From Yuukianura sp. NJ FZ-2021 (taxonomy: Eukaryota), in assembly GCA_046563655.1 (NCBI GenBank), contig JAJCTO010000009.1, positions 992,001-1,056,000 of the forward strand: 64,000 nucleotides of DNA. Reading direction: 5' to 3'. The first letter of the stretch is position 1. The number at the start of each line of letters is the position of its first letter. This document shows, piece after piece, positions 7,860 to 31,984 of the stretch. The notes under the pieces are model-generated. The model did no database searches. It was not told the DNA's origin and saw nothing but the letters and a program-made list of their open reading frames with translations. The position numbers were made by a program, and so were the translations under genes.

Positions 7860-7934
7860 GGATTCGAACCCTGGCAAAAAGTAACTCAAATGCTCAATGA
7901 ACATCATCCTCACCACTGAGCAATTGAGTTACTT
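7860..7934 (-). ncRNA. Putative Pol III hairpin RNA (arm A copy)
   Basis: Same structure as 19633-19707; the difference within the hairpin is in the loop. Confidence 0.5.
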
Positions 7935-9479: not shown

Positions 9480-9569
9480 CCACACCCTCCAAAAAAGCAT
9501 GTTTCAGCTACCAAAACTGAGATGGAAAGTCCCATCTCCTGCTTCACGGGCTAAATCAAGATTACTACT
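9480..9569 (-). repeat. Polinton left terminal inverted repeat
   Basis: Near-identical to 44320-44409; AGTAGT terminus; internal hairpin GAGATGG-AAAGTC-CCATCTC. Confidence 0.92.
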
Positions 9570-12500
9570 CACGTAGGTTAGAGGACGGTTATTCATTGCT
9601 GACTCCACGGCGCAGAGACAAGTTTCCAACTCCACGTAGCTGACCCGACTTTTTCCTAACATCCTTCTGAGTAAATCCTTGGCGGAGCGAATGAGACGTT
9701 CCCACCATCCTCCCCACCATGGAGCCGCGGGGGGGTTGAAACGCCAACAGATCCGTTCCGCTTCTGTTCTTTCCACGACCAACTTCCAGTCTATCGTCTT
9801 GAATAAATTGACTGCTCCTTTGAAGTTGGTGCCGTTGTCGGAGAAGACAGTCAATGGTCGTCGTTTCCGTGTGCAGAATCGGAAAAATGCGAGAAGGAAA
9901 TCTTCTGTAGACAGCGACTGGACGACCTCTAGATGGACACCTCTGTACACGGCGCATGTGAAAAGGACGATGTAGGCTTTGCTGTTGTCTCGTAGCGTAA
10001 GAGGGCCGGCTAGATCAACTCCTACTATTTCAAATGCTGTCGCGTCCTTCACTCTTCCCTCTGGCAAGGCGCTAGGAGCCACTGCACACTTCTGAGTGTC
10101 GTATCTTCTGCAGAGGACGCATGTGTGAATTATCTTCTTAATTGCTCGTCTTCCTTGGATAATCCATGCCTTCTCCCTGATTCTTCCCATTAGCAGCTGT
10201 GCTCCTCCATGGCAATTCCTGACGTGTTCTTCCTTGATGAAGGCGTCCACCATGGGATGTGAGTTCGGCAGTAGTACTGGTGATTTGAAGTACTCCGTGT
10301 CGTTTCTGTATAAGAGCTTTGTCTTGACACGGATGACACCATCCTTGTCTCGTTCCACGCGCAATCCGTCAATGACGCTGTCTCCCTTATGGAATGATTC
10401 ATTCTGGATCAACTTGAAAATTTTGAATTCTGCCTCTTCGATTTCTTGTGCTGATGGTAGTTCCACGTCTCCAATTCTCACTGCAGTCTTTTCTGGTTTG
10501 AGTCTGGTACGGTGGATGAAGCGAAGGACGTAAGACATGACCCTCAGGTTCCTGGAATAGCTGTTGAAGACAACGTACCAAGGCTTCTTATTGAAAATTG
10601 TATCGACAGTTGAGATCTTCTTGACTTCCTGATTGATTTCACTCTCGTCTACTTCTGGTTCCGACTGTGGCCATTCCGACTCATCCAACTTCAGCCACTC
10701 GGGTCCTTCCCACCATCTCAACTTCGCCAATTTTCCTGGAGAAGTTCCTCTTGAGGGTAGATCGGCGGGGTTGAGTTCTCCTGGGACATGTCGCCAATTC
10801 GCAGTTGGAGTCAATTCCAAAACTTCTTTAACGCGGTTACCCACAAACGTTCCCCATTCGGCTGATCTCTTGATCCATGCGAGTGCAGTTGTAGAGTCGC
10901 TCCAATGAAATAAGGGGATGGCTTCAATATCCAGTGCCTTCCGAATTGTGCTTGAGAGTCTCGCAGAGATTGAACAGGAAAGGAGCTCCAATCTAGGAAT
11001 GGTTACCTTCTTGGCTGGGGCAACTCTAGACTTCGCTTGAAGAAGGTGGACTTTTACCCCACTTCCCGTCTTGATCCTGAGGAACGCCACTGTTGCATAA
11101 GCTGACTTGCTTGCGTCTCCAAATAAGTGTAGTTGGCAGTTTCTCGTATTTACTGGAATGCCTTCAGTACAATTTCTAGGGATCTGGATCTTACTGGACG
11201 TAAGCACGAACTCTTCCCACCAATCCCTGAATTCCTTTTCAACTTCCGGATGTACTTGTTTGTCCCACTCCTTATCTTCGATCCATGCTTTCTGGAGGAG
11301 AAGTTTTGGAATCACGATGGTCGGGGCGAGAAAACCGAGGGGATCAAAAACGCTCTGGATCTTTGATAAAATTATCCGCTTGGAAATCTTGACTGGAATC
11401 TCTGATGGTAGAATGTCACAGTACAGGAGATCCTTCACCTTGTTCCACTTGAGTCCAAGGACTCCTGTTACCTCATTGTCTCCGCGGCATCCTGTCACTT
11501 CCCATTGCCTCAGCTCCATCTTCGCCTCGGATAAGGCATTGGTAGATGCTCGTTTCAAGTCTTCATATTCTGAAATGGATTCCACTGTAGTCACCAGGTT
11601 ATCTACGTACAGTGATTTCTCGATCTTTTCTGCCATTCCTGAGTTGGATGAACGTAGTAACTGAAGGTGATGTCCAATGACTGCTGCCAACAGAAATGGA
11701 GAGCAGTTCATACCAAACACGACGCGATTGTGTTGGTAGATCTTGACTTTCTGCATCGTCTGGTCTTCCCACCACAGGAACCGGAGAAAATTGCGATCTT
11801 CTTGACTGACTTCTATCATAAGGAACGCTTTCCTTATGTCTGCAATGACTCCAATGGTTCCCATTCTGAAGCGTAGAAGGATTGTCGGAATCAGCTCCAG
11901 GAAGTTAGGGCCCTTTTCTAAGCTTGAATTGAGAGATGGATTTCGGCCTAACTTGCATGAAGCGTCGAATACTGGTCTCACAGGAGTGGTGAGGCTTTCC
12001 TTGAACACAGCTCGATGCGGGAGATAGTGCAACCTGGCTGTTGTGTCTTCTGCGACGACGCTGATTATTCCTTCATTTTCCCAGTCCTTGAAAATAGCGT
12101 CATAACTTTCAAACTTTCCTAAGGACTTCAACTTCCTCGATGTGGTCTGAAGGCGCTTGAATGCAACGTCGTAGTTTGATGGGAGTGCCGCTTGAGCTCC
12201 CCGACTGACCCATGGAAGACACACAGAGTAACGTCCAGAAACGTCTCTCTTGACTGTTCGTGCGAAATGTCTGTAGGTTTCCCGTTCCCGTTCCTCTTTC
12301 GTTCTTGTTTCGGCAGGATCTCGTATCCCAATCGTTTCTAAGTTCCACAGGTCCGAAATGCTTGAGCAGGAAACGGTCATTGTGATGACTGAGAGGGCGA
12401 CAGTGTTTGTAGTCTTCGGTTGACCAATCAGAGTCCATCCAAGGGTTGTCTCCATTGCAGTCAATCCATTTTCTAATTGAATGATGCTGCCGGTCATGAT

Positions 12501-12656
12501 CGTTCCGTAGTAGTCTGCTCCGATGAGGATGTCAACCTCGGACGGCTGTTTTGGATCCAGGTCTGTGACGAAGATCCGTCTTCTTTTCAGCTCCGTCATC
12601 CACGGTCCTCTGACAACTCTGGAGATAGGGCCGCAGATCCTGGGATGATCCATCAT
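9570..12656 (-). CDS. pol: BEL/Pao pol (end of protease region, RT, RNase H, integrase core), interrupted
   Basis: RPVFDAS, ADIRKAFL, YVDN, DASKSAY, WSDS, NPADLPSRG, GVDLAGP, SDNGTNF and GGWWERL motifs; ...NNRPLTYV continues at 44416. Confidence 0.95.
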
Positions 12657-14290
12657 GGTAAAAGGGAGCGGTTGCTTCTTCTGATTTCTAACAAAAGAAA
12701 ATCAAAGATGGTGTGAGATTGTCCAGTAACTTCTGTGCCACCAAAGAGAGTATGATTTATCGTGACTGTCTCCTTGGCCACGAGGGCGAGCTCATCAGCC
12801 AACTTCTTTGTGATGAACGACCGCTGGGACCCACTGTCGATGAGTAACCTCGCTTCTTTGCTTTTCTGTGTTGCCGGATTCACGACCTTGACCACCAACG
12901 TCTTGAGAGCGACATTGTCAGTGAAGTTGAGATTGCTTTGAACTGATGGTGTTGTTCCTTTTGCTTTTGACTGAGAAGTAGTTACTTCTTCTTGCTGCTT
13001 TGTTGCGTCGCCTGGGCAAATGACAGCGTAATGCCTCCTCCCGCACTTAGAACATGCAACTTTCGTACGGCATTTCCGAAATCCATGCCCGGTTTTGAGA
13101 CATCCAAAACACGCCCGCTTCTCTTCAACTATCTTCTTCCGGTCAGCTAAGGGCATGGCCTGTGCTTTTCTGCAGTCTCGACTTTCGTGTCCATTCCCAC
13201 AGAAAAGACAGACAGGACGTTGGTCGAGTTTGGAGCCAGTATGAAGTCCTGCTGCTGTAGGAACAGTATCTGCGTCTGGATTGGTACGACTGACGACTTG
13301 TTTCTTCTGCTCATGGGAATGGAGTCCAAATCCAGCCCGTGCTAGCTTCCTGGTTTCCTCATGGTCGATTTCCGCTCTCAGAAATGACATGAGGTAGTCT
13401 AGCTCGCTCGTCGGTGGATTTTCTTTTGAGCCATCCCTTCCGTAGTTAGAGCTTCGTTGCCATGCCCGTAGAATCTCTTCTGGGAGGCTCGACTCAACCA
13501 TGGGGTAGAGGAATTCTTCCATGTTTTCTTTGATGACGCCTAATGATTCTAACGAACGCAATGCTGCTTCCAATTTGTCATGTAGGAGTCCAACTGGCGT
13601 TTTTTCTTTTGCTCGTGTGTCAAGGATCATCTTGATGAGCTCTCGGACGTAAACTTGACGTAGCAAATTCGGTTTTCCAAATCTCTCCTTGAGTGCATCG
13701 ACTGCCTTTGAATAGTTTTCGGAGGACTGAGGAAAGCGCTTGACGACATCGTGAGCTCGTGATCCTTCCTTCATACTCTGAATGAGGTAAGTGAACTTCT
13801 CAGAGTCGTCTATTTCTTCGTTCCCGTCGATGATCTTGAACTGGGCCCACCACCCCAGCCAGTCCGTGAGTTCTCCCGAATACTGCTTGAGTGTGATTTT
13901 GGGAAGACGGAGATGGTGCTTTGAGCTTCCGCCCGTAACTGAAGGGGAGTTGACGTTGAGCTGAAGGGTGTTTTGTTGAGTGGTGTAGAGAATGTCACTA
14001 GCTGCCTTTCGATTCTTCCGAATTCTGGACGAATATTCTCGAATCCGCTTATTCTCTTCTTCACCCTTAGCTCTCGTGTAGTCATCTTCATCGATGAGAA
14101 GATCCATGTACTCGCTGTCGATTCTCTTCAGTTCCTCTGTCACTTCATCCAGTTCCTGAAGCAGGACTTCTAGATTTGCAAGACGTGGAGGGGCTCTTTT
14201 GACTTCATTTTCTATATCGGTACAGCATTGAGTAACAGAATCTCGAACAGCATCTCTCTTCCTGGCGATTCGCTCGATGGAGTTTACCAT
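12653..14290 (-). CDS. gag: BEL/Pao gag with zinc knuckles and aspartic protease
   Basis: LPKITL..YSG..TDW..WW.QF, KFTYL, three Cys/His knuckles (CLFC..GH...DC, CFGCLKTGH..RKC, CSKC.RRH...IC) and LIDSGSQRSF; frame break to pol near 12655. Confidence 0.93.
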   Translation of the reverse strand: MVNSIERIARKRDAVRDSVTQCCTDIENEVKRAPPRLANLEVLLQELDEVTEELKRIDSEYMDLLIDEDDYTRAKGEEENKRIREYSSRIRKNRKAASDILYTTQQNTLQLNVNSPSVTGGSSKHHLRLPKITLKQYSGELTDWLGWWAQFKIIDGNEEIDDSEKFTYLIQSMKEGSRAHDVVKRFPQSSENYSKAVDALKERFGKPNLLRQVYVRELIKMILDTRAKEKTPVGLLHDKLEAALRSLESLGVIKENMEEFLYPMVESSLPEEILRAWQRSSNYGRDGSKENPPTSELDYLMSFLRAEIDHEETRKLARAGFGLHSHEQKKQVVSRTNPDADTVPTAAGLHTGSKLDQRPVCLFCGNGHESRDCRKAQAMPLADRKKIVEEKRACFGCLKTGHGFRKCRTKVACSKCGRRHYAVICPGDATKQQEEVTTSQSKAKGTTPSVQSNLNFTDNVALKTLVVKVVNPATQKSKEARLLIDSGSQRSFITKKLADELALVAKETVTINHTLFGGTEVTGQSHTIFDFLLLEIRRSNRSLLP

Positions 14291-15123
14291 GATAAACAAA
14301 TGAGAGAGAACGACTTAAAATTGGTCTCAGCTGATATGTAAGGAACGTAGCTTACTTCAATTGTTCCCACTCCGGCAGGGATCAGCCTCGACGTATGCCT
14401 TCTTATAAAAAGGTTGATCAATTGTAGTCCTTTGGTAGTTGTCCACAGTCCCAGTACTGTGAAATGTCCCTGCAGTAGGTTGACTCACAAACAAAAGGTC
14501 TGTTAGTAACTCGGACAGTCTAAAAATAACTGGAACGGTAGTCACCTTATCAATTCCCACTCCGGCAGGGATCAGCCACAACGTAAACTTTGTAAAAAAG
14601 TCGGTTGAATGCTGGACTGTCTTCTTAGTTTGGTATGTAACGACTTCCTTCTAATTCGTCTCGTAGTTGCATCAAAACAGAACGGAAATTAGAAGATAAT
14701 CAGATGTAAATTGAATCAGAACGACTCCTAACCTTGTACAATCCCACTCCGGCAGGGATCAGCCTCGATGTGAGCTTTGTAACGACGAGGTGATGTATCT
14801 GCTTCTATGACGGAGATAGGTTTTCCAATTGTCCTTGACCTCTGTTTCGTCTTCTGCTTCTGCTCGACTGCTTCCCGGGACGGCTACTCACTGGAGCACG
14901 GATGCTTTTCTCTTGTCAACCAGTAGCAACTTCGTCCAATTCAGCCAAACAAAAGAACAGAACCTGCTCTTAGTAATGATCAATGAATGATTAAGAATTG
15001 GAGTGTATCACCCAGGTCAGTCCCGTTCCGGTAGGGACACACCACGATGTGAACAGGTGTTTATCTTCACGAAGATCCAAAAGTCAATGCGAGGTCACGA
15101 AATTTCCAAACGCTAACCGGCCA

Positions 15124-15135: not shown

Positions 15136-15476
15136 TGTTGGATATCGACTCAGATTCCAACAGAAGCGCCAGCAACTACCCGTCGACAGGTCACTTCCTT
15201 AGTTCTTCGGATGAACGTTTGAACATGCAAATAACTGGATGACTGACACTCGACAATAACCAATGAACACTTATTGTTTAATTCCCGTCAATGAAAGGTA
15301 CAGTAAAAGTGATAAGACTGACTGGGCATGAAGATCCTACCTCGTCAACGGTCAAAACGGAACTTGTTTTCTTATAAGTAAAAATGATAAAAAAAGTATA
15401 GGTAGATGGGAGGGGTTGGACTAAAACCCTGAAGCAAGAAACGAAATAGCCTTACAACCTAACATTATATTCAACA
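15136..15476 (-). repeat. BEL 5' LTR (341 bp)
   Basis: TGTTGAAT...TCCAACA on the minus strand; matches 45101-45441; preceded by TSD CTTGG (15477-15481). Confidence 0.95.
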
Positions 15477-18022
15477 CCAAGATAAAATCTGAGGCAGAGC
15501 GGTTCATTCAGACTTTTAAGTACGCTCTAACCAGATTTAATTGCGATTTATCCACACCAATTAAACTTGGGTTCCTGTAGTACTTTTCAGGAGGTTTTCC
15601 GAAAAGTAAGTCATTTTCACCAGGCATCGCTCCGCGTGGAGTTTTTTTGAATGATTTGTTTTGAAACAAATTTTCATAAAAAAAAGTCACGAGATGAGGG
15701 ACGACACAGCAAGTGAAAGTGGGTTCCTGTAGCCCTTTTTATGAGGATTTCAAAAATATAGTTGACTTTTACCCAGCATCGTTCTGGAATGCATTTCTTT
15801 TGAATTCTTTGTTTTGAAACATGAATTTTCATAAATAAAGGTAACAAGATGAGGGACGACACAGCAAGTGAAAGTGGGTTCCTGTAGCACTTTTTATGAG
15901 GATTTCAAAAATGTAATTTACTTTCTGTTCATTCTCACATTTGCATGTTCATTCTCACAAATTTAAGTCGTTTTGCGTCAAAATGGTGCTCGACATTGCC
16001 CTGGGTGCCGTATTCCAACCCAAGATAAAATCTGAGGCAGAGCGGTTCATTCAGACTTTTAAGTACGCTCTAACCAGATTTAATTGCGATCTATCCACGC
16101 CAATTAAACTTGGGTTCCTGTAGTACTTTTCAGGAGGATTTCAGAAAAGTTATGAAATTTATTTATATTTATTTATTTATGAAATTATTTATGAAAATTC
16201 ATGTTTCAGAACAACGAATTCAAAAGAAATGCATTCCGGAACGATGCTGGGTAAAAGTCAACTATATTTTTGAAATCCTCATAAAAAGGGCTACAGGAAC
16301 CCACTTTCACTTGCTGTGTCGTCCCTCATCTCGTGACTTTTTTTTATGAAAATTTGTTTCAAAACAAATCATTCGAAAAACCTCCACGCGGAGCGATGCC
16401 GGGTGAAAAGGAGTTACTTTTCTGAAATCCTTCTGAAAAGTACTACAGGAACCTAAGTTTAATTGGCGTGGATAGATCGCAATTAAATCTGGTTAGAGCG
16501 TACTTAAAAGTCTGAATGAACCGCTCTGCCTCAGATTTTATCTTGGGTTGGAATACGGCACCCAGGGCAATGTCGAGCACCATTTTGACGCAAAACGACT
16601 TAAATTTGTGAGAATGAACATGCAAATGTGAGAATGAACAGAAAGTAAATTACATTTTTGAAATCCTCATAAAAAGTGCTACAGGAACCCACTTTCACTT
16701 GCTGTGTCGTCCATCATCTTGTTACCTTTATTTATGAAAATTCATGTTTCAAAACAAAGAATTCAAAAGAAATGCATTCCAGAACGATGCTGGGTAAAAG
16801 TCAACAATATTTTTGAAATCCTCATAAAAAGGGCTACAGGAACCCACTTTCACTTGCTGTGTTCTCCCTCATCTTGTGACTTTTTTTTTATGAAAATTTG
16901 TTTCAAAACAAATCATTCAAAAAACCTCCACGCGGAGCGATGCCGGGTGAAAAGGAGTTACTTTTCTGAAATCCTCCTGAAAAGTACTACAGGAACCCAA
17001 ATTTAATTGGCGTGGATAGATCGCAATTAAATCTGGTTAGAGCGTACTTAAAAGTCGGAATGAACCGCTCTGCCGCGGATTTTATTTTGGTTTGGAATAC
17101 GGCACCCAGGGCAATGTCGAGCACCATTTTGACGCAAAACGACTTAAATTTGTGAGAATGAACATGCAAATGTGAGAATGAACAGAAAGTAAATTACATT
17201 TTTGAAATCCTCATAAAAAGTGCTACAGGAACCCACTTTCACTTGCTGTGTCGTTCCTCATCTTGTTACCTTTATTTATGAAAATTCATGTTTCAGAACA
17301 ACGAATTCAAAAGAAGTGCATTCCGGAACGATGCTGGGTAAGAGTCAACTATATTTTTGAAATCCTCATAAAAAGGGCTACAGGAACCCACTTTCACTTG
17401 CTGTGTCGTCCCTCATCTCGTGACTTTTTTTTATGAAAATTTGTTTCAAAACAAATCATTCAAAAAACCTCCACGCGGAGCGATGCCGGGTGAAAAGGAG
17501 TTACTTTTCTGAAATACTTCTGAAAAGTACTACAGGAACCTAAGTTTAATTGGCGTGGATAGATCGCAATTAAATCTGGTTAGAGCGTACTTAAAAGTCT
17601 GAATGAACCGCTCTGTCTCGAATATTATCTTGGGTTGGAATACGGCACCCAGGGCAATGTCGAGCACCATTTTGACGCAAAACGACTTAAATTTGTGAGA
17701 ATGAACATGCAAATGTGAGAACGAACAGAAAGTAAATTACATTTTTGAAATCCTTATAAAAAGAGCTACAGGAACCCACTTTCACTTGCTGTGTCGTCCC
17801 TCATCTCGTGACTTTTTTTATGAAAATTTGTTTCAAAACAAATCATTCAAAAAACCTCCACGCGGAGCGATGCCGGGTGAAAAGGAGTTACTTTTCTGAA
17901 ATCCTTCTGAAAAGTACTACAAAGAATTCAAAAGAAGTGCATTCCGGAACGATGCTGGGTAAGAGTCAACTATATTTTTGAAATCCTCATAAAAAGGGCT
18001 ACAGGAACCCACTTTCACTTGC
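15477..18022. repeat. Satellite block with an orientation switch at ~16150-16190
   Basis: Same 155/388-bp units as 45442-64000; reverse orientation to ~16150, forward from ~16186. Confidence 0.95.
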
Positions 18023-18759
18023 TGGGACTTTCCATCTCAGTTTTGGTAGCTGAAACATGCTTTTTTGGAGGGTGTGGCTTTTGAAAAAATCATGCATTCA
18101 CCACTCCTCATTCATCTGTTTCAGAAGTATTAGACTGGAGATGTTGAGTTTCTGAGTCAAGTGCATCCCCCACACCCCGCTCCCCACCACGTTGTTTTAC
18201 CACACAAAAAATGTCAATAAATCTGGCCTTGCAAAATGTGGTCTGACAAAAAAATGAAAAACATTGAATTCTCTTTCCAGCGAGGTTTTCATATGTGAAA
18301 GCAGAAAATCTAAGTTAACATGAGAAAATGAAATGAGAATTTTTTTAAACAGTTTTTTTGAAAATATATGTTTTTTGAATTTGTTCAAAAACTGAGACAA
18401 AAAAATTCATATTTATACTAATTCATTGTATTCATACTAACAAGATGAGAAGTGTTTGGTTCTTAGTTTCTTTTGTTTGTTTTGACAAGAGAAGAAGCGA
18501 GAGAATCTCTCTCCCATTAAATTTATGTCTCTCTTCACATTTGAAAAAGACAAAAGTAATAAATTTTGTGTCTTGACATGACATGTCAATGCTGACACTT
18601 TGTGATCTTTGTAAACCCAATGGATGGTACTTTGTAAAAATTTGTTTTGTTGTGATTGTTCTGTCTCTGCGTACAAAGCTGAGTTTTAAATCAAAAATAG
18701 TAACAGAAGTTTCAACTTTGAGCGAAAATTCAGTTAAGTTTTGAAAAAAGTCTGAAAAA

Positions 18760-19097
18760 ATGGAGAACTCAAAATTCAACAAAAATCAACTCGAATCCGA
18801 AACGATTCCGGATTCGCATTTGTCTAAACTTGAACATTGTCACAACTTTGACAGTGCTAAATTCGACAAAAGATTTCGAGATTCAAGTTTAATACAAAAA
18901 TTTTTGAAATTCGACGCTCTGGTATTTTGCAAAGAGGGTGAATGTGCAGATCAAGACGTAGGTCAAGATCTTAGTTCGGCAAGTTCCTTGGACGAGGACG
19001 ACGACGGTGGCCTCACACTTTATTAATGGGAGCAGCATATTAAGCCCAGAGTGTACGTCGATAGGGAAACTTCAGATATGCGGAAAAAGTTAGCAAC
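18760..19097 (+). pseudogene. TIR-proximal accessory gene exon 1 (arm B, premature stop)
   Basis: Copy of 8466-8795 with TAT changed to TAA at 19024-19026 and a 9-bp insertion; GTAAGA donor at the end. Confidence 0.5.
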
Positions 19098-19632
19098 GTA
19101 AGAATGATTTGCTGGTGTTTAACAGAAAAACATGTTAGGTCACTCATATATTTTTTTTGTTTTGTAGACCATGTGAGTTCAGTAGTAAGGTCGCTGGGAT
19201 GATGCGTGTGGGGTGGGTACATGGACAACGCCTTGGAAAGAACGAAACTGGACCTCTTGAACCAGTAAGTTTTTAGAAAAAAAAACGCTTTTTTGTTTTT
19301 TAGGTGCTATTTACTTTTATGAAATTTAGGTAAGCACTGCAGGTCGTGAAAAGTGGAAACAGCATGTAGATGGGCGTGGTCTTGGAGCGGAAGAAAAGTA
19401 TTTGCTTCCAATTTAATTTTTTTGTTAGTTTTAATAAATGCTTAGATCTTCAAAATATTCTCAGAGTTCAATCATGGTGAATCATGTCCAAAAGCGGCAC
19501 TAGTTTTTTTGTAATTGTATTTGTGTACCAATTTTTTTTGGAGTAGGTGAAAATGTGAAGGGTAGGCCGTGGAGCTTTGTTCTTGCTAAGATTGGAAAGG
19601 ATTTGATCTTCAAAATCTGTCATTAATTAAAT

Positions 19633-19707
19633 AAGTAACTCAATTGCTCAGTGGCGAGGATGATGTTCATTGAGCATTTGAGTTACTTTTTGCCAGGGTT
19701 CGAATCC
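19633..19707 (+). ncRNA. Putative Pol III-transcribed hairpin (pre-miRNA/VA-RNA-like)
   Basis: ~22-bp stem AAGTAACTCAAtTGCTCAGTGG / TCATTGAGCAtTTGAGTTACTT, A-box-like TTGCTCAGTGG, TTTTT at 19687-19691, B box GGTTCGAATCC at 19697-19707. Confidence 0.5.
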
Positions 19708-20417
19708 TACCCTGTGCATGAAATATTAAATTTTTATACTATCATATTTTGTTATAAATTAGGAAAAAATATGATATGATGTGGAAAGTTTTAAATTTGT
19801 AGGGAAAAAATGTTGAGACTCCTAGAATCAGGTAAGAACATTGATAGTTTTCCCCTTAAACCATTCCTTTGTAAGCAGCAAAGATACATGAACACCGCTT
19901 TTGAAAGAATTGAGGTTTTTAGAAAAAGTCCGTGCTGAGGTGGATCTGGAGTTTTGTATAAATTGGTTGAAAATTTAGAATGTTTGCTCAGAAATTTGAC
20001 AGTCCTGATATTAGATTGAGGTAAAAAAAGTCTAAAGTCATGGCAGGTGATTACTTTTGTTCATTCTGTTCAGAATATTTTGATACACTTCAGTTGTTTG
20101 AAGTACACTGCCGTAGAAGTCACAATAGCAATTACACACAAGCAAGTAAGAGTTGAGTATGTGAAATGTTTTTTTTTTGTTTTTTATTGTTTTAAGTTTG
20201 TGTTCTTTGTTTTAAATTTGAGTTGAACAACCTGGATCAAGCAGATCCATGAGAGGAGGAGCCGCTCATAATCCAAATTTTGAGAGAGACGTAGAAAGCA
20301 GTCAACTGAACGAAGCAGTAACAGATGTTGCTAATATAAGCAATAACGGTACACTTAGTAGATTTTTATGAAGCTAAAATAGGACTTATGAAATTATTTG
20401 TTTTCTAAGAATTGCTT

Positions 20418-23400
20418 ATGGAACTTTCTGAACATGACCTGGATATTATAGAACAAGTGCTGCTGGAAGATGACTTTAGCATTGGTAAATGAATGAAAGC
20501 TAAGTTGCCCAGAAACAGTTGAAAGTATTTTTCTTTTTCAGAACTTTCTCCGCCTCATGAGTGGGGGGAAAACACAAACTTTAAGAATCGATTCTGTCCA
20601 CTTTGTGTTGTTCGATTCAAGGATCCGGGTGACTTGGATTTACATCGTTTCGTTTATCATCCAGAACTATTTGATGGAAATGAAATACCAATTCAAGTAG
20701 GTGGACGATTAACTTCTGTTCAATTTGAACTCCAGCGCGGACGAAGAGGACGTGAAGGGATTGTAAGAGAATATGTTTTTGGTGACGTTGAAGTGTTTAC
20801 CTGTCACGAAGTGATTCTATTAGAACTTTCGAGAAGCATCTTTTCTGAAATTGGGGCCTACAGAATTGTGGGTACTATTTTTGCTGAAATGACAAGATTA
20901 ACAAGAGATGTTGCTGGTGTTTGTGAAAGTGAAGTTTTCCCGTTTCACTCATTTATGCATAGTGTTTTAGATCCTAGTATGGTGTCAACAGTTATTATTC
21001 AATTACAGCGTAAAATGTCGCTATCTTTGGAAACATTTTTATACAATGGTTCTGGATGGAAAGTGAAACTGTTCAAAAAGTTTCAATTACGAATTTTGAA
21101 GTTCCAAATGGATCGAGTTTCAAGTTTTATTCCTACACCAAAGTCAATTCAAAAGAAAAATTGTATTGTGAATATCAAAAACATGGATCAGTATTGTTTC
21201 AAGTATTGTATTTTAGCAGCTCTGATACCTCTTTATCAGAACCCAAAAATTAGTTGTAGACAGTTCACAGACCCTAGAGTATATCTGAAATACAAGTGCA
21301 GTGTTGATTTTGACTGTGTAAATTTTCCAATGACAGTTTGCCAGTTGGATAAATTTTTGCATTTTAATCCGACCATATCAGTAAATGTGTACGGTTATGA
21401 GGAATTAGATGAACTGGACTCTACCATTTCAAAAAAGAAGATCACCGTTTTCCCATTGTATGTATGTAAAGAGCGAAGAAAGTTTAACATTGACTTGCTG
21501 TTGTTGTTGGAAGGTTTGAAGTCTCACTTTACATTGTTAAAGAAGAGTGAAAATAATCCTTCAGATGGTCTGTCTCGACTTTTGGGAAAAGGTGAACGGA
21601 ATTATGCAAAATACATTTGCAGATTTTGCCTGCTATATTGGAGGACAAAGAAAAAGCTTGAAAATCATGAGAAATTTTGTGCTGCTTTAGAACTACAAAG
21701 AGTGACGTTACCATTTGAAAAGTTTTACAATTTCACGAGAATTAAGAGAACACTGCCTGTTCCAGTGGTTGGTTATTTGGACTTTGAAGCAGTTTTATTT
21801 CCAAAAGCAGCAAGTGCACTTACGTCGAAAGTTGGTGATGTGTACAATGAACATATAGCTTGTGGTTGGGCACTTATTATGGTTGGACCTCTTGGTGAAC
21901 CATTGGAAAAAATTAAAATATTTCAAGGTCAAGACGCGCAGCATACAGCTCTTGATGAGTTAATTAAAATTTCTTCAAAATATTTTCCATTGTTAAAAGT
22001 TGATGTTGGAAGAGACATGCGTTGGACTACTAGAGACTTTTATAATCTTCTGCATGCATCCACACACTGTATACATTGCGGTTTGGAGGTTCCTAATCAA
22101 GAAAAGGTTGTTGACCACTGCCACTACACTGGAGAAATTCGTGGAATGAGCTGCAGCGGATGTAACTTAAAATCTGAGACAGTGAATTTCATTCCAATCA
22201 TATGCCATGGTTTTCGTCACTATGATTCAAAATTTATTGTACAAGCTCTGAACAGTGCAAAATTGAAAAAAGTGGACGTGTTACCTCACTCGACTGAAAA
22301 GTTTACTTCGATGCAATTGACAACTTTGGAAGGAAATGTGCTTAAGTTTATGGATTCTTTTCAGTTTATAAGTTCGAGTTTAGCTGATAAAGTGAATGTT
22401 TTGGCGAAGGATAACTTTGATAAGTTTCCCATAACAAAAGTTGTATTTGATAAAAATTATCAAAACATTAATTTGTTGTTCCGCAAAGGAGTGTACCCCT
22501 ATACCTATTTTGATAATTTTGAAAAATTTGAAGAGACAAGTTTACCACCAAAAAGTGTTTGGGTTAGTGACTTAACAGGAAAAGGAATTTGTGATGAAGA
22601 ATATGAACATGCTCAGCGTGTTTGGAAGGAGTTTGGTTGTAAAACTTTGAGAGATTATCATAACTTATATGTATCTCTAGATGTCACACTGCTTGCTGAC
22701 TGTTTTCAAAACTTTAGACAGAGATTTTTAGCTGATTTCCGTTTAGATCCTGCTCACTATTATACGTTGCCGGGTATAGCATATGACGCAGCTATACTTT
22801 GTGGTAGTGTTGATCTTGAATGTTTGAGGGAACTGGATCAATATTTATTTATTGAAAAAGGAATTAGGTCATTACGATATGCTAAAGCGAACAACAAGTA
22901 CTTAGCGTCAGCTTATGATTCCACACAACCAACAAGTTATTTGTGTCTGTTTGATGCGAACGTCTTGTACGCCCACCAACTCCGAAATTTTGTACCCTGG
23001 AAACATTTTCGGTGGGATTTATGCTTATGGCAAAGGACACTGAAGATGGATGATGTTGTGAAGATGATTTTGGGAATGGGTGATGAGGCAGAAGAAGGTT
23101 TAATTTTGGAAGTAGATTTGACTTATCCAAAGGAGTTACATGACATAATGACTATACACTAGCAGTAGAAAGGCGTTGAATTCAATTTTCAGATTTATCA
23201 TCCTATACTCATCATGTTATGAACAACGTTGGAACAAAATCCGCAACTCAAAAAAAGACAAAATTGGTGGGAAGTTTAGAAGATAAAAAGAATTATGTTA
23301 TACACTACAGATTACTAAAACTTTTTTTGAAACTGGGTTTGAAGTTAACAAAAGTACACTGTGCTCTAAGGTTCAGACAAGCGCCATTGTTTCGTGTATA

Positions 23401-24771
23401 CTGTGAGTTATGTATAAAACGACGTCAAGAGTCAACTAATGAAGTTGATAGGAAAGCCTATAAAGCTTTGGGAAATATTTTAGTTGGAAAAACTTTTCAA
23501 AATGTTAGAAAATATAAGCGAATAAATGTTGGTTTGTGTCCAAGGCCCGTAGGCCGTGGGGACTAGAGCTCCGGCTCTATCCTACTAACACCTTGGACGG
23601 GCGCGGGTTCGCGTCCCGGCGTCGCCGACACGAAAGTCATTTTCCAGAAATTGTTTTCCCACTTTCCTAGCCCAGATGGGGTGTTCGGATGATAGGTCAG
23701 TTTGGGGGGTTTTGGGTGCGTGTGAAGAGGTCAGTAGTTGCAGTTGTGGAGGGGGGTCGTGGGCCGGTATGCGTACGATGCTGTTCCTGTCACTTGCCTG
23801 GAGCTGTGATATGTGGTAGGGCCCTAGCCCGTTCAGCTCTAGCAGAAAGCCTTTCGTCCTTCCCTCAGAACTTCTCGCCAACTATCAGACTGTACCACCG
23901 CCCCACCTCATAGGACCTCAACCCAACCCAGAAATTCCCTACCCCTGTTGATAAAGCTAAATGCTAATGTCAATTAACTCTCAAAAAAAAAAATGTTGGT
24001 TTGTCAAATCAAAAGATTTTAGAGTATGGTAAGAAGCCTACCGTAGAGGATATTAGAATGATACACGATGACTGTGTTTTGTTTGTAATGAAGAAATTGT
24101 CAGTGTGTTTAAATAAGCCAATATTTGTAGGACTTACTATATTAGATGATAGTAAAAAACAAATGTATGAAGTGTACTATAACAAATTGAAACCACGTTA
24201 TGGTAGTAATATGCGTCTGATATTTACAGATACTGATAGTTTTATGTTACATATTAAAACGGAAGATATTTATGCTGATATTTATAATAGTGTAAAGAAA
24301 GACGAAGGCTTGTTTGATACATCAAATTTTAAAAAATCTGATAGGCTTCTAGGGCACTTATACAGTGACAAGCATGCTGGAGAAGGGGGTTATTTTAAGG
24401 ATGAAAGTCCAGATTGCATAATTTCTGAAGTTGTAGCTCTAAAACCAAAACTATATGCTTTGAAGGTGGTGACACGTGATGGAGAGGAGAAAGAAATTAA
24501 AAAAGCTAAAGGTACAGTTACGGCAGTACTGGAATCTCAGTTGAATTTCAATGATTATAAAGATGTATTAGAAGAAGGTAGCTGTAGATTTGTGTCAATG
24601 AATACAATTCGTAGCTTAAATCACAGACTGTACACAACAACAATGAAAAAGCAGAGTTTGTCTGCTGTAGAAGACAAAGCGTTTTATTTAACACCAATTG
24701 AATCTCTTAGATTTGGACATTATAAAATTAAAGAGTATCAAGGTGAACAAGAAGAAGAAAGAGTTGAATAA
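20418..24771 (+). pseudogene. polB: pPolB (arm B) with spliced N-terminus and C2H2 finger; deletions, frameshift, stop and SINE insertion
   Basis: Same motifs as arm A. Intron 20485-20541 joins the ATG at 20418 in frame. Lesions near 20777, 22868, 23145 and 23178. Removing the SINE restores KRINVGL-SNQKILEY. Confidence 0.93.
23538..23990 (+). mobile_element. tRNA-derived SINE in pPolB (arm B)
   Basis: TSD AAATGTTGGTTTGT (23524-23537 and 23991-24004), poly(A) tail, head with B-box-like GGGTTCGCGTCCC. Confidence 0.88.
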
Positions 24772-24842
24772 AATGGAAAAGGATTAATAAATCAAAGTTT
24801 TGTATATGTTTCACTTCATTTACTCCCAGAACCTCAGAAAGA

Positions 24843-25476
24843 ATGGAGTTCAGGCCTGAATTAATTCATCCATTTGTTATGGTGCTGAGTCGACCTACTC
24901 AAAGTGGGAAAACATCACTGATTAAACAATTGATTGAGAGAAGGGACGAAGTTATTGAACCAAAAATTAAACGTATTGTTTATTGCTACAGTGAGGATGA
25001 GCCTAGTTTTGCTGAAGCATTGAAATTACATCATAACGTTGAATTTAAGCAAGGAATGGAGAATTTGGATGTTGGAGAAGGAAATCAAGTTGAAACTATG
25101 GTGATTTTGGATGATTTTATGGAAGTTGTTGCCAACTCAAAATAAGTTTGTGGCATGGCCACAAGAGGGTCTCATCATCGTTCGCTTAGTTTAATTATAA
25201 CAGTGCAAAACTTTTTTTATAAAGGGTGTAGAAACCTAACTTTAAATAGTAAATATGTAGTTTTGTTTCGAAATCCCAGAGATACATCAATTATAAAATA
25301 CTTGTCAAGACAAATGCATGGTGGAAAACCAAACAGCTTATTAGAAGAAGCATATGAAGATGCAACCAAAAACAAACCTAATAGTTATTTGTTTATTGAT
25401 TTATCTCAAAATCAGGATGACAATTTTCGTTTTAGATCAAATTTATTTCCAGACTCATCCTCTTGTATAGTATATA
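24843..25476 (+). pseudogene. Polinton packaging ATPase (arm B); last codons displaced to 31391-31401
   Basis: Walker A/B motifs; TAA at 25143-25145; joining across the nested element gives ...SCIVYMKK-stop followed by AATAAA. Confidence 0.9.
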
Positions 25477-27050
25477 AGTCAATGGTTTGGGAGGCCAACG
25501 CCCCCCCCCCCTCCCCCGTTTACTTTTGCACTTTTGGTTTTTCTTTTTGCACTTTTGTGCAACTTTTTATATTTCGTTTTTGTCCATGCTCACTGTAGGT
25601 TTAGGTGCTTAATTAGTTTTTAAAAATAATTTTAAGAAAATATTTTGCGGTTTTGTGGTTTTCGTGCAAGTACCTACCTGAAAAATCCTCTCCTCTTTGC
25701 ACTTTTATACAACTTTTTAGTTTTTTTATAGCTTGGGCTCATTTTAAACTTGGCATTTAATTTGGTTCTTATTTTTTTTTTGTGTTTGAAAATACTACTT
25801 TCCCGGAAGCTATCTCTCTCGGAAACTTTTTAAATAGTAAATTCTCAAAAATGTTTCTTTGTAAACATCAGGTTCCTTTCTAAACATCTTTCGAAAATAT
25901 TTTGAAATGACACAAGACCTAACCTACGGTTCGTCTTGCACGTTTGCGGTTTTTAATTGCCGAATACTTCCGTGTCGCGATCGCTAATTAGAATGCACGA
26001 AAAAAACTTACGACAAGTTCAATCAATGAAAACTTTTGACCTTGTGAGTTGATTGACTCGTGTACAAAAAGCAAACTTATTTAAAAAAACGTACGACAAG
26101 TTCAAGCAATGGGAACTTTTGACATTGTGAGTTGATTGACTCGTGTACAAAATACAAACTTATTTCCAATATAAACAATTGCAAGCACAAGGGCAATGGT
26201 GGGAGGTCTGCCTTCTAGCTTTTCGCCGAGTGAATAACGGTTCACTCACCGCAAAAGCATTGCGTAACCATTTCAATGCTATAATTTGACTAGTCAGCGT
26301 TTCCATCTAGTTGCTTATGATCCGTGGAGTGTTGGTACGCAAGTTTATACGACACCCAGTGCTCATTTTGGTATTGGTTTTTTTCAAAATCACAAATCTC
26401 ACCGACTAATTTCTGCCGCTAGACGTCAACCTCGTTTACTATTGGTCCGCTAGTCCTTCAAAACTACACATACTAGTCGTTTTGAATGGGCATGGAAATA
26501 GCTTTATCGCAAGTCAACTGCCCAAGGACGTTCAAATCCCTCGAGTTTGACGATAAAGTGCGTCAACCTGACTTCTGATTGGTCGACGTGTTGTTGCCCC
26601 AGAGGGCGTGGCTAGTACAATACTGAAATTTGATTGGTCAAAATCCCAGCCCGTGTATCAATTTCAGCCAATTGGCGTCCAGCTCGCTTTTGATTGGTCG
26701 ACTTGTTGCTGCCCCAGAGGGCTTTGCCAGTAAAATACTGAAATTTGCTTGGTAAAATCCCAACCTGTAAACCAATTTCAGCCATTTGGCGTCCATCTCG
26801 CTTCTGATTGGTCGACGAGTCGTTGCATCAGTGGGCGTGGCCAGTACATTGCTGCAATTTGATTGGTCAAAATCCCAAGGCCTATACCAATTTTCAGCCA
26901 ATGGGCGTGCAGCTCGCTTCTGATTGGTCGACATGTCGTTCAAAAATGGCCTAGTCCCACCAATGGGAGTGGCTGGTCGCAAAATGTTTTAAAATCCTCT
27001 GCCATTTTTTTTAGAAAGTGCAATAAAATAAACTCGTGGAATCATAAAAA
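25477..27050 (+). repeat. Left TIR of the nested element (~1.57 kb)
   Basis: Reverse complement of 29810-31384 with few differences. Confidence 0.93.
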
Positions 27051-27272
27051 GTGGTCTCGAGACATCATTTGTTGCTGAACCCTGGCGTATATACAGCATG
27101 CTGTGTGCGCCAGAACATTATAAACTGGCCAGTTTGGAAAACATTTAATCTTCACTGCTTTACCAAACCATACTCATTTGTAGTTTGACAAGCAACCGGA
27201 AAGGACGTGCTCGCAAAGCAGGAAGCAAAAGTAACCTCAAGGGTGTTTTTGACTGAGAGCGACACTGGTACA

Positions 27273-27830
27273 ATGGATTCTGCACAAGTTACGCCAAAGA
27301 ATAGCAAGAAAACGAAAAACGAGGATGGAAATCAGGTAATGGGGTTCCTCTCAAATGAAGAATTGCAAGTTCTGGAATCGGCTAATCGAAGAAACGCGAG
27401 AGTTGAGGATGACGATTCTGACGGACGGTCCAAGTTACCTCGCAAGTTGCAAAAAACGTCGCTGCAACATGGAAGAATGTCGCCATTTGAACAGCATATC
27501 CCGCACCAAATGTCGCCAAGTGACACAGAAACACGCAAGACATCGAAAAAATCACGCCGCAAAGGGTCAAAGTCTATGAAATTGACGCGAAAACGAAAAA
27601 AAGGCGGAAGAAAAGAGGAGAGAATCGAATCCCCACGCTGTAGTGGAGCAGAATCTGATACAGATTCAACAAAAAAGAACAAAAAACATCAAAAAGTCAC
27701 CCAAAGTGACGTTGCAGGAAAGAAATCAACTAGAAAAACTTCAAAAAGGAAACCAAAAAGGGGGCAAACTGGACTTATGTATGCTACTTCGTGCAAGAAT
27801 AGTGCAAATGGTAGCCTGCTTCTGCGGTGA
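27273..27830 (+). CDS. Lys/Arg-rich basic protein (putative DNA-condensing core protein)
   Basis: First ATG at 27273, TATA-like TTATAAA near 27118; tracts such as RKTSKKSRRKGSKSMKLTRKRKKGGRK. Confidence 0.55.
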   Translation: MDSAQVTPKNSKKTKNEDGNQVMGFLSNEELQVLESANRRNARVEDDDSDGRSKLPRKLQKTSLQHGRMSPFEQHIPHQMSPSDTETRKTSKKSRRKGSKSMKLTRKRKKGGRKEERIESPRCSGAESDTDSTKKNKKHQKVTQSDVAGKKSTRKTSKRKPKRGQTGLMYATSCKNSANGSLLLR

Positions 27831-28255
27831 AACCACTTGCCTTTACACATTTGTCATTAAGTATAGTAGAAACTAAAGTCTCCCCACCTGTTGACTACTA
27901 TAAATTGGCATTATTAGCCAGTTTGGCGGCCAGTCGGCATGCGACAGCCGAGGTGACAACACCACTCTGCCAAAAAATTGTGCAAAATTGTACGTTTAGT
28001 GGGCAGAGTTGTCTTCAAACGGTCGCCAATCGGTACCCAAAAGCCAAATTTAATACACTTTTCTGCCAAAAAGTTGGACATTTGCATCCAAACGGTCGCC
28101 AGTCGGCATCGGCACCTCTTATCGACCTCATCACTCGACGTACTTTAGACAACAATTGGCTCTACATTGTTGAGGTTCAGCGATTTTTAGCAAATTAAAA
28201 TACCCCAACAATATCTCACAGACTTGACCTAAAACGAGGCCAACTAACCACGGAA

Positions 28256-29677
28256 ATGGAGCTTACCGTTCCAATGCACTCGAAGCTGGTGGACACAAAT
28301 GCCAAATTGGACTTGTTTTCCATGCCAGATACCGAAGTGTCTTGCCTGCTGGACAATTATCTCAAAGTAGAGTCGTACTATGCCACAAAAGGAAATGAAA
28401 ATCCGATTCATTTTTCGTTTTGGCAAATGGCCTACCTGGATTTGTCGGATTCGTTTTTCAGATTTGTAGTTTCCATTCGAAAAAAAGATGGTTCGGCACT
28501 CGGTGACACAGACAAGGTTGCTCCGGAAAATCTGTTCTTTCACACATTTATCGAAGATTTTAAAGTCGTTGTCAACAACACGCAAGTCGTGGCGCAGGGG
28601 CCAAGAGCATACCCGTACGAGGCTTGGATATTTACTCAACTTCAGCAAGGGATTGGTTCGAAAAGCAGTACATTGTCCAGGGAAATTTATTTTCCCGGCA
28701 ATGTTATGGACAACTTTGACGACACAAACCCAAGCTTCAAAGCTCGACTTGAGCTGGCAAAGAAAAGTAATCAATTCGAGATGATTGGACGTCCGATGCT
28801 TGGAATTTTCACTTCGCCGAGACTTTTCCCGCCAGGAACACGGTTCAATTTTCAAATTCAGCGGACCAACCCAGAGTTTTGCTTGTGCGGACCATCCTCT
28901 ACAACTGAATACAAGATTGAAGTGGAGTGTGCAGACTTTTACGTTCGCCAATATCGTCTAAATGAAAAGTTGACTACTCAACTTCGCACCGCATTTGCAA
29001 AAAAGAAAATGGCATTGTATTCTTTTGACAACGCCGTCAAGTTCTCTACGTATGTACCCGTTGGGGTAACCGAATTTGAAATTCCAAAAATTATGCCTAC
29101 GGCAATTCGGCCAAAGCTCCTCTGCATTGCAATTACGACAAGCGAAGTCGTCAACGGTAAACTCGAAAAGTCACCGTTTAATTTCAAACCACATGGAATC
29201 AAAAACATGAAACTCAAATTCGAAGGAAAGGGAGTTGTTTTTGAGGAAATGAACTTTGAAAACAAAAATTACATGCTGGCCTACAACAACATGTGCAAGT
29301 TAATTTCACATGGAACCGACGGAAACGACATTACATATGAGCAATTTGTAAAGGGCAATGCGATTTTTGTGTTTGACACTCAAAACTTGAGATCAGACAC
29401 GTTCAACCCTGGAAAAATTGGACAATTTGCATTGGGCCTTAGCTTTGACGAAAAGACAAAGGAAGAGCTAATGGTTATCACCATTGCCGTGGAAGACGTT
29501 ACGCTGGAAATTGGAGAAGGCGGTTCGCATCTACGAAAAGCATTTTTTTCAAGTAATTTTTGTAACTTCAAATTTCAAAGCGTTCCTTCATATGTATTCC
29601 ACTCACAATACTTTATACAATTCATAATCTGGTGTAATGTATGGTATGAGCTTGAAAATAAAAACCAGCATCATTAA
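28256..29677 (+). CDS. Polinton-type double jelly-roll major capsid protein of the nested element
   Basis: LDLFSMPDT, NPIHF, YLDLSDS, YPYEAWI and SPFNFKPH motifs run collinear with the host MCP at 36399-37737; intact ORF followed by AATAAA. Confidence 0.88.
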   Translation: MELTVPMHSKLVDTNAKLDLFSMPDTEVSCLLDNYLKVESYYATKGNENPIHFSFWQMAYLDLSDSFFRFVVSIRKKDGSALGDTDKVAPENLFFHTFIEDFKVVVNNTQVVAQGPRAYPYEAWIFTQLQQGIGSKSSTLSREIYFPGNVMDNFDDTNPSFKARLELAKKSNQFEMIGRPMLGIFTSPRLFPPGTRFNFQIQRTNPEFCLCGPSSTTEYKIEVECADFYVRQYRLNEKLTTQLRTAFAKKKMALYSFDNAVKFSTYVPVGVTEFEIPKIMPTAIRPKLLCIAITTSEVVNGKLEKSPFNFKPHGIKNMKLKFEGKGVVFEEMNFENKNYMLAYNNMCKLISHGTDGNDITYEQFVKGNAIFVFDTQNLRSDTFNPGKIGQFALGLSFDEKTKEELMVITIAVEDVTLEIGEGGSHLRKAFFSSNFCNFKFQSVPSYVFHSQYFIQFIIWCNVWYELENKNQHH

Positions 29678-29809: not shown

Positions 29810-31384
29810 TTTTTATGATTCCACGAGTTTATTTTATTGCACTTCCTAGAAAAAAATGGCAGAGGATTTTAAAACATTTTGCGACCAGCCACTCCCATTG
29901 GTGGGACTAGGCCATTTTTGAACGACATGTCGACCAATCAGAAGCGAGCTGCACGCCCATTGGCTGAAAATTGGTATAGGCCTTGGGATTTTGACCAATC
30001 AAATTGCAGCAATGTACTGGCCACGCCCACTGATGCAACGACTCGTCGACCAATCAGAAGCGAGATGGACGCCAAATGGCTGAAATTGGTTTACAGGTTG
30101 GGATTTTACCAAGCAAATTTCAGTATTTTACTGGCAAAGCCCTCTGGGGCAGCAACAAGTCGACCAATCAAAAGCGAGCTGGACGCCAATTGGCTGAAAT
30201 TGATACACGGGCTGGGATTTTGACCAATCAAATTTCAGTATTGTACTAGCCACGCCCTCTGGGGCAACAACACGTCGACCAATCAGAAGTCAGGTTGACG
30301 CACTTTATCGTCAAACTCGAGGGATTTGAACGTCCTTGGGCAGTTGACTTGCGATAAAGCTATTTCCATGCCCATTCAAAACGACTAGTATGTGTAGTTT
30401 TGAAGGACTAGCGGACCAATAGTAAACGAGGTTGACGTCTAGCGGCAGAAATTAGTCGGTGAGATTTGTGATTTTGAAAAAACCAATACCAAAATGAGCA
30501 CTGGGTGTCGTATAAACTTGCGTACCAACACTCCACGGATCATAAGCAACTAGATGGAAACGCTGACTAGTCAAATTGTAGCATTGAAATGGTTACGCAA
30601 TGCTTTTGCGGTGAGTGAACCGTTATTCACTCGGCGAAAAGCTAGAAGGCAGACCTCCCACCATTGCCCTTGTGCTTGCAATTGTTTATATTGGAAATAA
30701 GTTTGTATTTTGTACACGAGTCAATCAACTCACAATGTCAAAAGTTCCCATTGCTTGAACTTGTCGTACGCTTTTTTAAATAAGTTTGCTTTTTGTACAC
30801 GAGTCAATCAACTCACAAGGTCAAAAGTTTTCATTGATTGAACTTGTCGTAAGTTTTTTTCGTGCATTCTAATTAGCGATCGCGACACGGAAGTATTCGG
30901 CAATTAAAAAACCGCAAACGTGCAAGACGAACCGTAGGTTAGGTCTTGTGTCATTTCAAAATATTTTCGAAAGATGTTTAGAAAGGAACCTGATGTTTAC
31001 AAAGAAACATTTTTGAGAATTTACTATTTAAAAAGTTTCCGAGAGAGATAGCTTCCGGGAAAGTAGTATTTTCAAACACAAAAAAAAATAAAAAGCCAAA
31101 TTAAATACCAAGTTTAAAATGAGCCTAAGCTATAAAAAAAACTAAAAAGTTGTATAAAAGTGCAAATAGGAGAGGATTTTTCAGGTAGGTACTTGCACGA
31201 AAACCACAAAACCGCAAAATATTTTCTTAAAATTATTTTTAAAAACTAATTAAGCACCTAAACCTACAGTGAGCATGGACAAAAACGAAATATAAACAGT
31301 TGCACAAAAGTGCAAAAAGAAAAACCAAAAGTGCAAAAGTAAACGAGGGAGGGGGGGGGGCGTTGGCCTCCCAAACCATTGACT
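29810..31384 (-). repeat. Right TIR of the nested element
   Basis: Reverse complement of 25477-27050. Confidence 0.93.
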
Positions 31385-31414
31385 TATATATGAAGAAATA
31401 ATAAAAGCTTACAG

Positions 31415-31966: not shown

Positions 31967-31984
31967 TCCAGGTTGAAGTTCAAA

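Follow-up and report, generated by a model that had tools for sequence, protein, structure and literature searches.

A candidate RNA polymerase III hairpin-RNA gene in a Polinton of Yuukianura sp.

Inside a Polinton, a DNA virus-like transposon, in the genome of Yuukianura sp. NJ FZ-2021 we found a compact module that joins a hairpin to a run of five Ts (T5) and to an exact B box matching the transfer RNA (tRNA) consensus. It lies in a 64,000-nucleotide (nt) stretch of contig JAJCTO010000009.1 (positions 992,001 to 1,056,000 of the forward strand; hereafter the window, whose own numbering is used throughout), 1.6 kb inside the left end of the Polinton and ~350 nt upstream of the start codon of its polymerase gene, pPolB. 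Our preferred interpretation, to which we assign a probability of about 45%, is that the module is a tRNA-gene-derived, compact RNA polymerase III (Pol III) type-2 mini-gene for a ~58-nt hairpin RNA ready for cleavage by Dicer. Judged by sequence, its putative promoter elements clearly derive from a tRNA-type gene. Pol III transcription, termination in the T5 run, Dicer processing and any target are steps that we infer by analogy with known systems, foremost the hairpin genes of bovine leukemia virus (BLV). An earlier reading of this DNA from its letters alone (the sequence-only reading) had proposed a Pol III-style hairpin gene at this place, an interpretation that is partly supported here, in that both the anatomy it described and its comparison with BLV hold; the expression and the role as host regulator or RNAi decoy that it also proposed find no support here.

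Anatomy of the module and its known counterparts

The features of the module and of its second copy in the window are as follows.

19633-19688, + strand: hairpin; the predicted RNA runs from ~19633 to ~19690
19644-19654, + strand: A-box-like motif TTGCTCAGTGG within the 5' arm, off the consensus at one position
19687-19691, + strand: T5 run, predicted Pol III terminator, which would leave a 2-3-nt 3' U overhang
19691-19718, + strand: small second stem-loop enclosing the B box, T-arm-like, 9 pairs (folding)
19697-19707, + strand: exact B box GGTTCGAATCC, beyond the T run
19732-19736, + strand: second T5 (T6 in the other copy), possible back-up terminator of a read-through RNA of ~100 nt
19599-19750, + strand: extent of the module still matched by diverged contigs (records 2, 3, 12 and 17, and loose contig ends)
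7879-7934, - strand: second hairpin copy, in the inverted Polinton copy, with one loop difference
7860-7870, - strand: B box of the second copy (motif search)

The hairpin measures 56 nt and is the longest short hairpin found within the window. Its 21 pairs, three of them G-U, form an 11-bp helix, a T/T mismatch and 10 further pairs (22 bp overall) that close a 12-nt loop, and the first two Ts of the T5 run belong to the closure of the stem; the ~56-nt hairpin with a ~22-bp stem ending in T5 that the sequence-only reading had described is therefore present as claimed. Folding, the check it had named, gave -27.5 kcal/mol for the 58-nt predicted RNA (z = -7.2) and -40.7 kcal/mol for the 101 nt around the hairpin (z = -6.7), and in neither case was any of 200 shuffled sequences as stable. 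Read on the + strand the hairpin has 21 pairs, compared with 17 on the other strand, where the G-U pairs become A-C mismatches, and the T run lies 3' of the hairpin on the + strand only. Because the G-U pairs and the T run exist on the + reading only, an RNA made from the + strand is favoured over a palindrome acting as DNA.

The elements around the hairpin were likewise found where they had been proposed. The A-box-like motif TTGCTCAGTGG sits in the 5' arm, 11 nt from the hairpin base, and departs at one position from the consensus TRGCNNAGTGG. The B box GGTTCGAATCC is exact and follows the T5 run after 5 nt; it begins 53 nt after the start of the A-box-like motif, with 42 nt separating the two boxes. 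Upstream of the hairpin lies the AT-rich sequence TCATTAATTAAAT. A 12-mer, GATCTTCAAAAT, also occurs upstream of the hairpin, where it is present twice, at 19445-19456 and 19605-19616, 160 nt apart. Directly downstream of the module is a second, AT-rich hairpin of ~17 pairs (19733-19785), which seems not to be conserved, because the diverged contigs described below break off at 19750.

To ask how much of this arrangement chance would provide, 40 first-order Markov random sequences of 64 kb each were scanned, with G-U pairs allowed and one mismatch permitted in hairpins. A hairpin of at least 21 pairs arose in 4 of the 40 and one ending in T4 in 2 of the 40, and the hairpin alone is therefore weak evidence, being only mildly unusual. 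Strict B boxes came to five in total over all 40 random sequences, and the only two matches to the B box with at most one mismatch in the window are the two copies of the module. The composite, defined as a hairpin of at least 14 pairs with T4 and a loose B box within 80 nt, appeared on average 0.05 times per random 64-kb sequence (40 simulations), compared with one duplicated event here; the two instances count as a single event because both sit in a duplicated segment. No further composite was found in the window besides the copies of the module. The hairpin, the T run and the B box together are not a product of chance.

The same order of elements has been described for the hairpin genes of BLV, as the sequence-only reading had noted. 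In these genes, according to two reports, the 5p arm holds an A-like box that lies 10-20 nt from where the microRNA precursor (pre-miRNA) begins. A terminator of T4-6 marks the 3' end of the hairpin and separates the A box from the B box, which follows 30-60 bp after the former; the BLV hairpins were shown experimentally to be primary Pol III transcripts processed by Dicer (PMC4267658, PMC12498455). The module corresponds to these genes in its A-like box (11 nt from the hairpin base), in T5 at the hairpin 3' end (19687-19691) and in a B box that would lie outside the transcript, 53 nt after the start of the A box. Hairpin length and stem also agree (~55-58 nt, here 56 nt; ~20-22 bp). The two differ in that the carrier here is a DNA virus-like transposon in an invertebrate-type genome whereas BLV is a retrovirus, in that a single hairpin stands here in place of the BLV cluster of five, and in that the B box here is a perfect tRNA consensus whereas those of BLV are degenerate. 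There is no sequence relationship between them, and the transcription of the module is predicted from its sequence.

If the interpretation is right, the Polinton would have built the module from a captured tRNA-type gene. TFIIIC would bind the exact B box (19697-19707) together with the A-box-like motif (19644-19654), and Pol III would begin ~11 nt ahead of the A box, with the A at 19633, which follows a T and is the first base of the hairpin, and stop within the T5 run at 19687-19691. The predicted primary transcript would be a ~58-nt hairpin RNA with a 5' triphosphate, a 22-bp stem and a 2-3-nt 3' U overhang, and such an RNA, resembling a short hairpin RNA (shRNA) or a pre-miRNA, would be a direct Dicer substrate with no Drosha step, as in BLV. 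The small RNAs cut from it might be directed at read-through or antisense transcripts of the element itself, at rival copies of the Polinton or at targets in the host. A scan of the window for near-perfect targets of either arm (at most 3 mismatches) returned none except the hairpin itself.

Other small-RNA systems with type-2 promoters resemble the module less closely. Two reports describe tRNA genes in polinton-like viruses, virophages and MELD viruses, which share with it the presence of a tRNA-origin Pol III type-2 unit in a Polinton-class element (PMC12220804, PMC8502044). The module differs from them in having no cloverleaf or acceptor stem and in placing the terminator between the boxes, and its product would be a hairpin and not a decoder. 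In murine gammaherpesvirus 68, viral tRNA-type Pol III promoters drive tRNA-miRNA units that yield Drosha-independent pre-miRNA hairpins. There, the tRNA-like portion comes first in the transcript and is removed by tRNase Z, whereas in the module the A box is part of the hairpin and the tRNA-like T arm is found past the terminator. The virus-associated (VA) RNAs of adenoviruses are also small Pol III RNAs with type-2 promoters, from a virus lineage related to Polintons, but they are ~160 nt long and contain both boxes, which here are separated by T5; only the ~100-nt read-through RNA that ends at 19732-19736 would invite a loose comparison. The head of a tRNA-derived short interspersed nuclear element (SINE) has A and B boxes at tRNA-like spacing and occurs in several sequence contexts, as does the module, which differs from it in its internal T5, in showing no tail or target-site duplication and in its link to pPolB in at least two diverged lineages.

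Several familiar classes of gene were considered and rejected. ARAGORN found 0 tRNA genes in the window; its calls at a 60-80% threshold (tRNA-Ser, Tyr, Ala, Gln and Ile) were treated as noise because they were mutually inconsistent. Rfam returned nothing at gathering thresholds over the 64 kb, and at E <=10 on 101 bases it gave no tRNA, only generic hairpin and small nucleolar RNA noise. With no cloverleaf or acceptor stem either, the module is not a tRNA gene. Nor is it an adenovirus VA RNA, and in this respect the sequence-only reading, which had also called the hairpin 'VA-RNA-like', was not borne out: Rfam gave no such match, and the T5 terminator stands between the A and B boxes. The best Rfam candidate for a known microRNA (miRNA) family, mir-955, reached 23.1 bits against a gathering score of 50, as a generic hairpin match. 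Drosha needs a stem of ~33 bp, and a 22-bp stem with almost no basal extension is the size of a Dicer substrate; at ~11 bp short, the hairpin is not a canonical Drosha-dependent primary miRNA. A coding exon, the possibility that the sequence-only reading had raised against itself, fails on two counts, since the single open frame of 46 codons has no Pfam match and a variant carries a 1-nt insertion in the loop. An uninterrupted tRNA-derived SINE would show a continuous Pol III unit, a tail and target-site duplications; the module has an internal T5, and neither tail nor duplication was found at 19599-19750. A decayed SINE head, which the sequence-only reading had also named against itself, keeps some probability and is taken up below. 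Finally, exact-word scans found no match for the 5' arm in viral and metagenome contigs, nor for the 3' arm with its T run in contigs of prokaryote genomes.

Copies in diverged lineages

We compared the contigs of five public DNA runs with positions 19200-20200 of the window at 80% likeness or more; two of these runs, X1 and X2, come from the same sample, and X4 carries a second organism label. The most informative copy is a 1399-nt contig (record 2 of X1). Over 19599-19692, which holds the hairpin, it has 6 substitutions and one gap in 94 nt (~93% identity), while over 19925-20151, the pPolB promoter and exon 1, it has 48 substitutions and 5 gaps in 227 nt (~77%). Where the window has 232 nt between the hairpin segment and pPolB, the contig carries 250 unalignable letters. 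The pattern is repeated in record 12 of X2. With 7 differences in 94 positions compared with 53 in 227 (Fisher p = 0.0008), the hairpin segment is, by this sequence comparison, significantly better kept in the diverged copy than the start of the polymerase gene. As far as these contigs tell, the link between the hairpin and pPolB is preserved in the diverged lineage, and the module is tied to pPolB in at least two diverged lineages.

Record 15 of X4 is a contig of the window type with G>C at 19653, the pair adjoining the loop, and the hairpin variants among those listed (19653, a T inserted after 19654, 19655 and 19658) all fall at or beside the loop. Record 17 of X4 keeps 19612-19692, including the hairpin and T5, and then continues with different letters; GGTTCGAATCC returns after the break, 15 nt past it instead of 4, in a stretch that we take to resemble the variable-loop and T-arm part of an ordinary tRNA. 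Loose contig ends occur at 19599, 19624, 19633, 19692 and 19750. Together the contigs show the module in several sequence contexts, one of which, to judge from the aligned letters, keeps the link to pPolB.

The second copy within the window adds little to this comparison. Its hairpin (7879-7934, - strand) differs from the first only at the loop position corresponding to 19655, which bears out the earlier claim that the two differ only in the loop, and across the whole module the copies differ by two substitutions (19655 in the loop, and 19714) and a T insertion at 19731. Since the flanks have diverged at the same rate, the comparison is uninformative and lends the Pol III interpretation no weight.

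More distant elements gave a different answer. Relatives of pPolB were found neither in JGI metagenomes nor, with a single protein as the query, in IMG/VR; a four-row pPolB alignment retrieved 16 Polinton-like loci from IMG/VR at ~25-43% identity (~180 kb in all). These 16 loci hold no tRNAs, no strict B boxes and no composites of hairpin, T4 and B box. We therefore reject the module as a general Polinton feature and regard it as specific to this lineage. The module is retained in the diverged copies and was not found in the distant loci.

Counter-evidence and competing explanations

Besides the empty distant loci and the uninformative second copy, several observations weigh against a functional Pol III gene. 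The A-box-like motif is off consensus at its second letter, and taken alone it occurs at chance frequency, with 14 matches (at most one mismatch) compared with 12.1 expected. The stems cannot be called invariant, as 3 to 4 substitutions of the diverged copy have no assigned position. An X4 contig that diverges after 19618 has three changes in the 5' arm, one of which hits the G of the A-box-like motif (30 letters of it are seen, the 3' arm lying beyond them), and in record 16 of X4 position 19419 is followed directly by 19696, so that the hairpin may be absent there while the B-box piece is retained. The high identity of the hairpin could, moreover, stem from recent spread or gene conversion instead of selection.

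The strongest competitor builds on these points. In this view the module is an inert relic that began as a tRNA gene, or as the head of a SINE of tRNA origin, captured by or inserted into the Polinton spacer; part of its 5' half was then duplicated in inverted orientation to give the palindrome, the boxes are leftovers, and the copies resemble each other because of recent shared ancestry or gene conversion. The promoter motifs are of the tRNA-gene type and the cloverleaf is gone (no gene by ARAGORN and no tRNA by Rfam, as above); an internal T5 would halt a SINE's own transcript, as in a dead copy; and hairpins as long as this one turned up in the 4 random sequences of 40. The loose ends at 19624, 19633, 19692 and 19750 place the piece in several contexts, as a repeat would be, and the X4 variant diverging after 19618 damages the A-box-like motif. 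A neutral relic should nevertheless decay like the spacer, which is unalignable, whereas the hairpin segment is kept at ~93% compared with ~77% for the start of pPolB, and another lineage again has the B box, there behind a spacer of different sequence. Decay also gives no reason for the hairpin base to coincide with the start predicted from the A box, or for T5 to coincide with the hairpin end. The left boundaries vary (19599, 19624 and 19633), as decaying homology produces them and a single insertion edge does not, and no target-site duplication or tail is visible. The relic explanation is weakened because of the differential conservation and the coincidence of the hairpin ends with the predicted start and stop; it keeps its standing because recent spread or gene conversion could mimic conservation and because one variant damages the A-box-like motif. 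On balance we consider it unlikely, while taking it seriously.

A control element acting as DNA is a less probable account. The B box would then be a TFIIIC boundary site and the palindrome a protein-binding or cruciform site, which together would shield or regulate the pPolB promoter 300 nt downstream, with no functional RNA. tRNA genes and lone B boxes are known boundary elements, and the position of the module suits such a role, in a spacer of ~500 nt between AATAAA at 19433-19438 and TATAAA of pPolB at 19957-19962; the hairpin and the B-box piece also seem separable in record 16 of X4 and record 3 of X1. A palindrome offers no reason, however, for a T run on one strand at the end of the hairpin, nor does it explain why the A box lies 11 nt from the hairpin base. 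The three G-U pairs fit an RNA read from the + strand, where 21 pairs form compared with 17 on the other, and we hold this explanation to be improbable.

Least convincing, and to our minds very improbable, is that the hairpin belongs to a transcript of RNA polymerase II (Pol II), as a miRNA precursor of the Drosha type within an untranslated region or as a signal for the 3' end of the upstream gene, like the 'hairpin rule' of giant viruses: viruses related to Polintons do end transcripts at hairpins and Rfam gave weak sub-threshold matches to miRNA precursors, but these are generic and far below threshold (mir-955, as above), Drosha would need a longer stem than these 22 bp with hardly any basal extension, the likely poly(A) signal of the upstream gene precedes the hairpin by 200 nt and the TATA box of pPolB follows it by 270 nt, and the exact B box is left unexplained.

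The Pol III mini-gene is the reading we prefer. The fuller proposal is that a lineage of animal Polintons remade a tRNA gene it had captured as a Pol III shRNA gene in the manner of BLV and keeps it under selection; we offer this as tentative, well short of an even bet.

The Polinton carrier and what the module would mean

The Polinton spans 26.35 kb between 58-nt terminal inverted repeats (TIRs) that are complementary at 56 of 58 positions and enclose the module, in agreement with the location inside a Polinton that had been claimed for it. Its main features are these.

18023-18080, + strand: left TIR, by complementarity to 44317-44374
44317-44374, - strand: right TIR, by complementarity to 18023-18080
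19957-19962, + strand: TATAAA, ~80 nt before the pPolB ATG at 20041
20041-23566, + strand: pPolB gene (exon 1 with ATG at 20041, then open reading frames (ORFs) 20523-23162 and 23180-23566)
24768-25145: packaging-ATPase-like ORF, weak (AAA_14, E = 0.0026; Adeno_IVa2, E = 0.12)
31415-33014, - strand: rve integrase (family match)
36454-37737: capsid-like ORF, placed with double-jelly-roll clusters by the protein atlas, a feature search only

With pPolB, an rve integrase, a double-jelly-roll-like capsid ORF, a weak ATPase match and TIRs, the carrier is by its sequence a Polinton/Maverick. The Pfam matches of pPolB are to DNA_pol_B_2 (weak) and to an Endonuclease_7/HNH motif, and its best database relatives are ~30% identical, two of them carrying PF03175. 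The second match corresponds to an Endonuclease_7/HNH-type zinc motif at residues 500-549 of ORF 20523-23162 (E = 1.5e-07), whose Cys, His and Asn residues are invariant among the 30%-identical relatives. The TATAAA at 19957-19962 is, from its position and letters, likely the Pol II promoter of pPolB, which would place the hairpin outside the pPolB messenger RNA. Between the left TIR and the module lies a 93-codon ORF (18745-19026, + strand) with an acidic tail and no Pfam match, followed by short intron-like GTAAG...TTTAG stretches at 19265-19310.

Farther inside the element, inverted repeats of 1.6 kb (25471-27050 and 29810-31390, 96-100% complementary) contain subrepeats of ~115 bp with CCAAT/ATTGG-type motifs and flank ORFs at 27189-29677 that have no family match. 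A 514-codon ORF (38996-40540, - strand) matches F-box (E = 0.009) and LRR (E = 0.004) domains weakly and could be cargo of host type that the element captured.

The first 9.5 kb of the Polinton (18023-27513) are repeated in inverted, head-to-head orientation at 1-9535 with 99-100% identity, this copy (copy A) being cut at the window start, and a BEL/Pao retrotransposon with ORFs at 9504-14314 (- strand) lies between the two. The host is an animal, and in the protein atlas the neighbours of the retrotransposon and of the capsid are mostly arthropod, a weak hint as to its group. The window contains no third Polinton copy; the ORFs between 33 and 45 kb are further genes of this element, together with the weak F-box/LRR-like ORF. 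No target-site duplication of the full Polinton was found (ACTTGC on the left, TCTCCT on the right), and the same flank of ~35 identical letters follows the inner end of copy A (9536-9580) and the right end of the full Polinton (44375-44420), a pattern suggesting that the two copies inverted or recombined with each other, or that the assembly is faulty here. The last 18 kb of the window (46094-63857) are filled with many copies of a 480-680-nt unit that are ~95-96% alike, with relatives at 15468-16150 and 16416-17642; at the start of this array is a BEL/Pao-type DUF5641 ORF (44395-45012).

Polintons stand at the root of several DNA virus lineages, including adenovirus-like ones, and have been treated as protein-coding elements. 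Full-text searches, judged by the listed titles and openings of abstracts, turned up no paper on a hairpin gene of the Pol III kind, or on a gene for small RNAs, in Polintons or Mavericks. If no RNA is made from the module, it would be an ordinary tRNA-derived relic. If the RNA is made, the BLV solution, in which the hairpin is the primary Pol III transcript and the B box stays outside the RNA, would have arisen independently in a DNA element, showing a route by which a tRNA gene can be rebuilt into an shRNA gene and providing a natural, compact Pol III shRNA cassette from an invertebrate. The element would then make its own Drosha-independent small RNA, free of Pol II silencing, with possible uses in tuning its own polymerase or antisense transcripts, in excluding rival Polinton copies or in interfering with host RNA interference. 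Among Polintons/Mavericks it would be the first small-RNA gene of the BLV type, and a DNA virus-like transposon and a retrovirus would then have converged on one solution.

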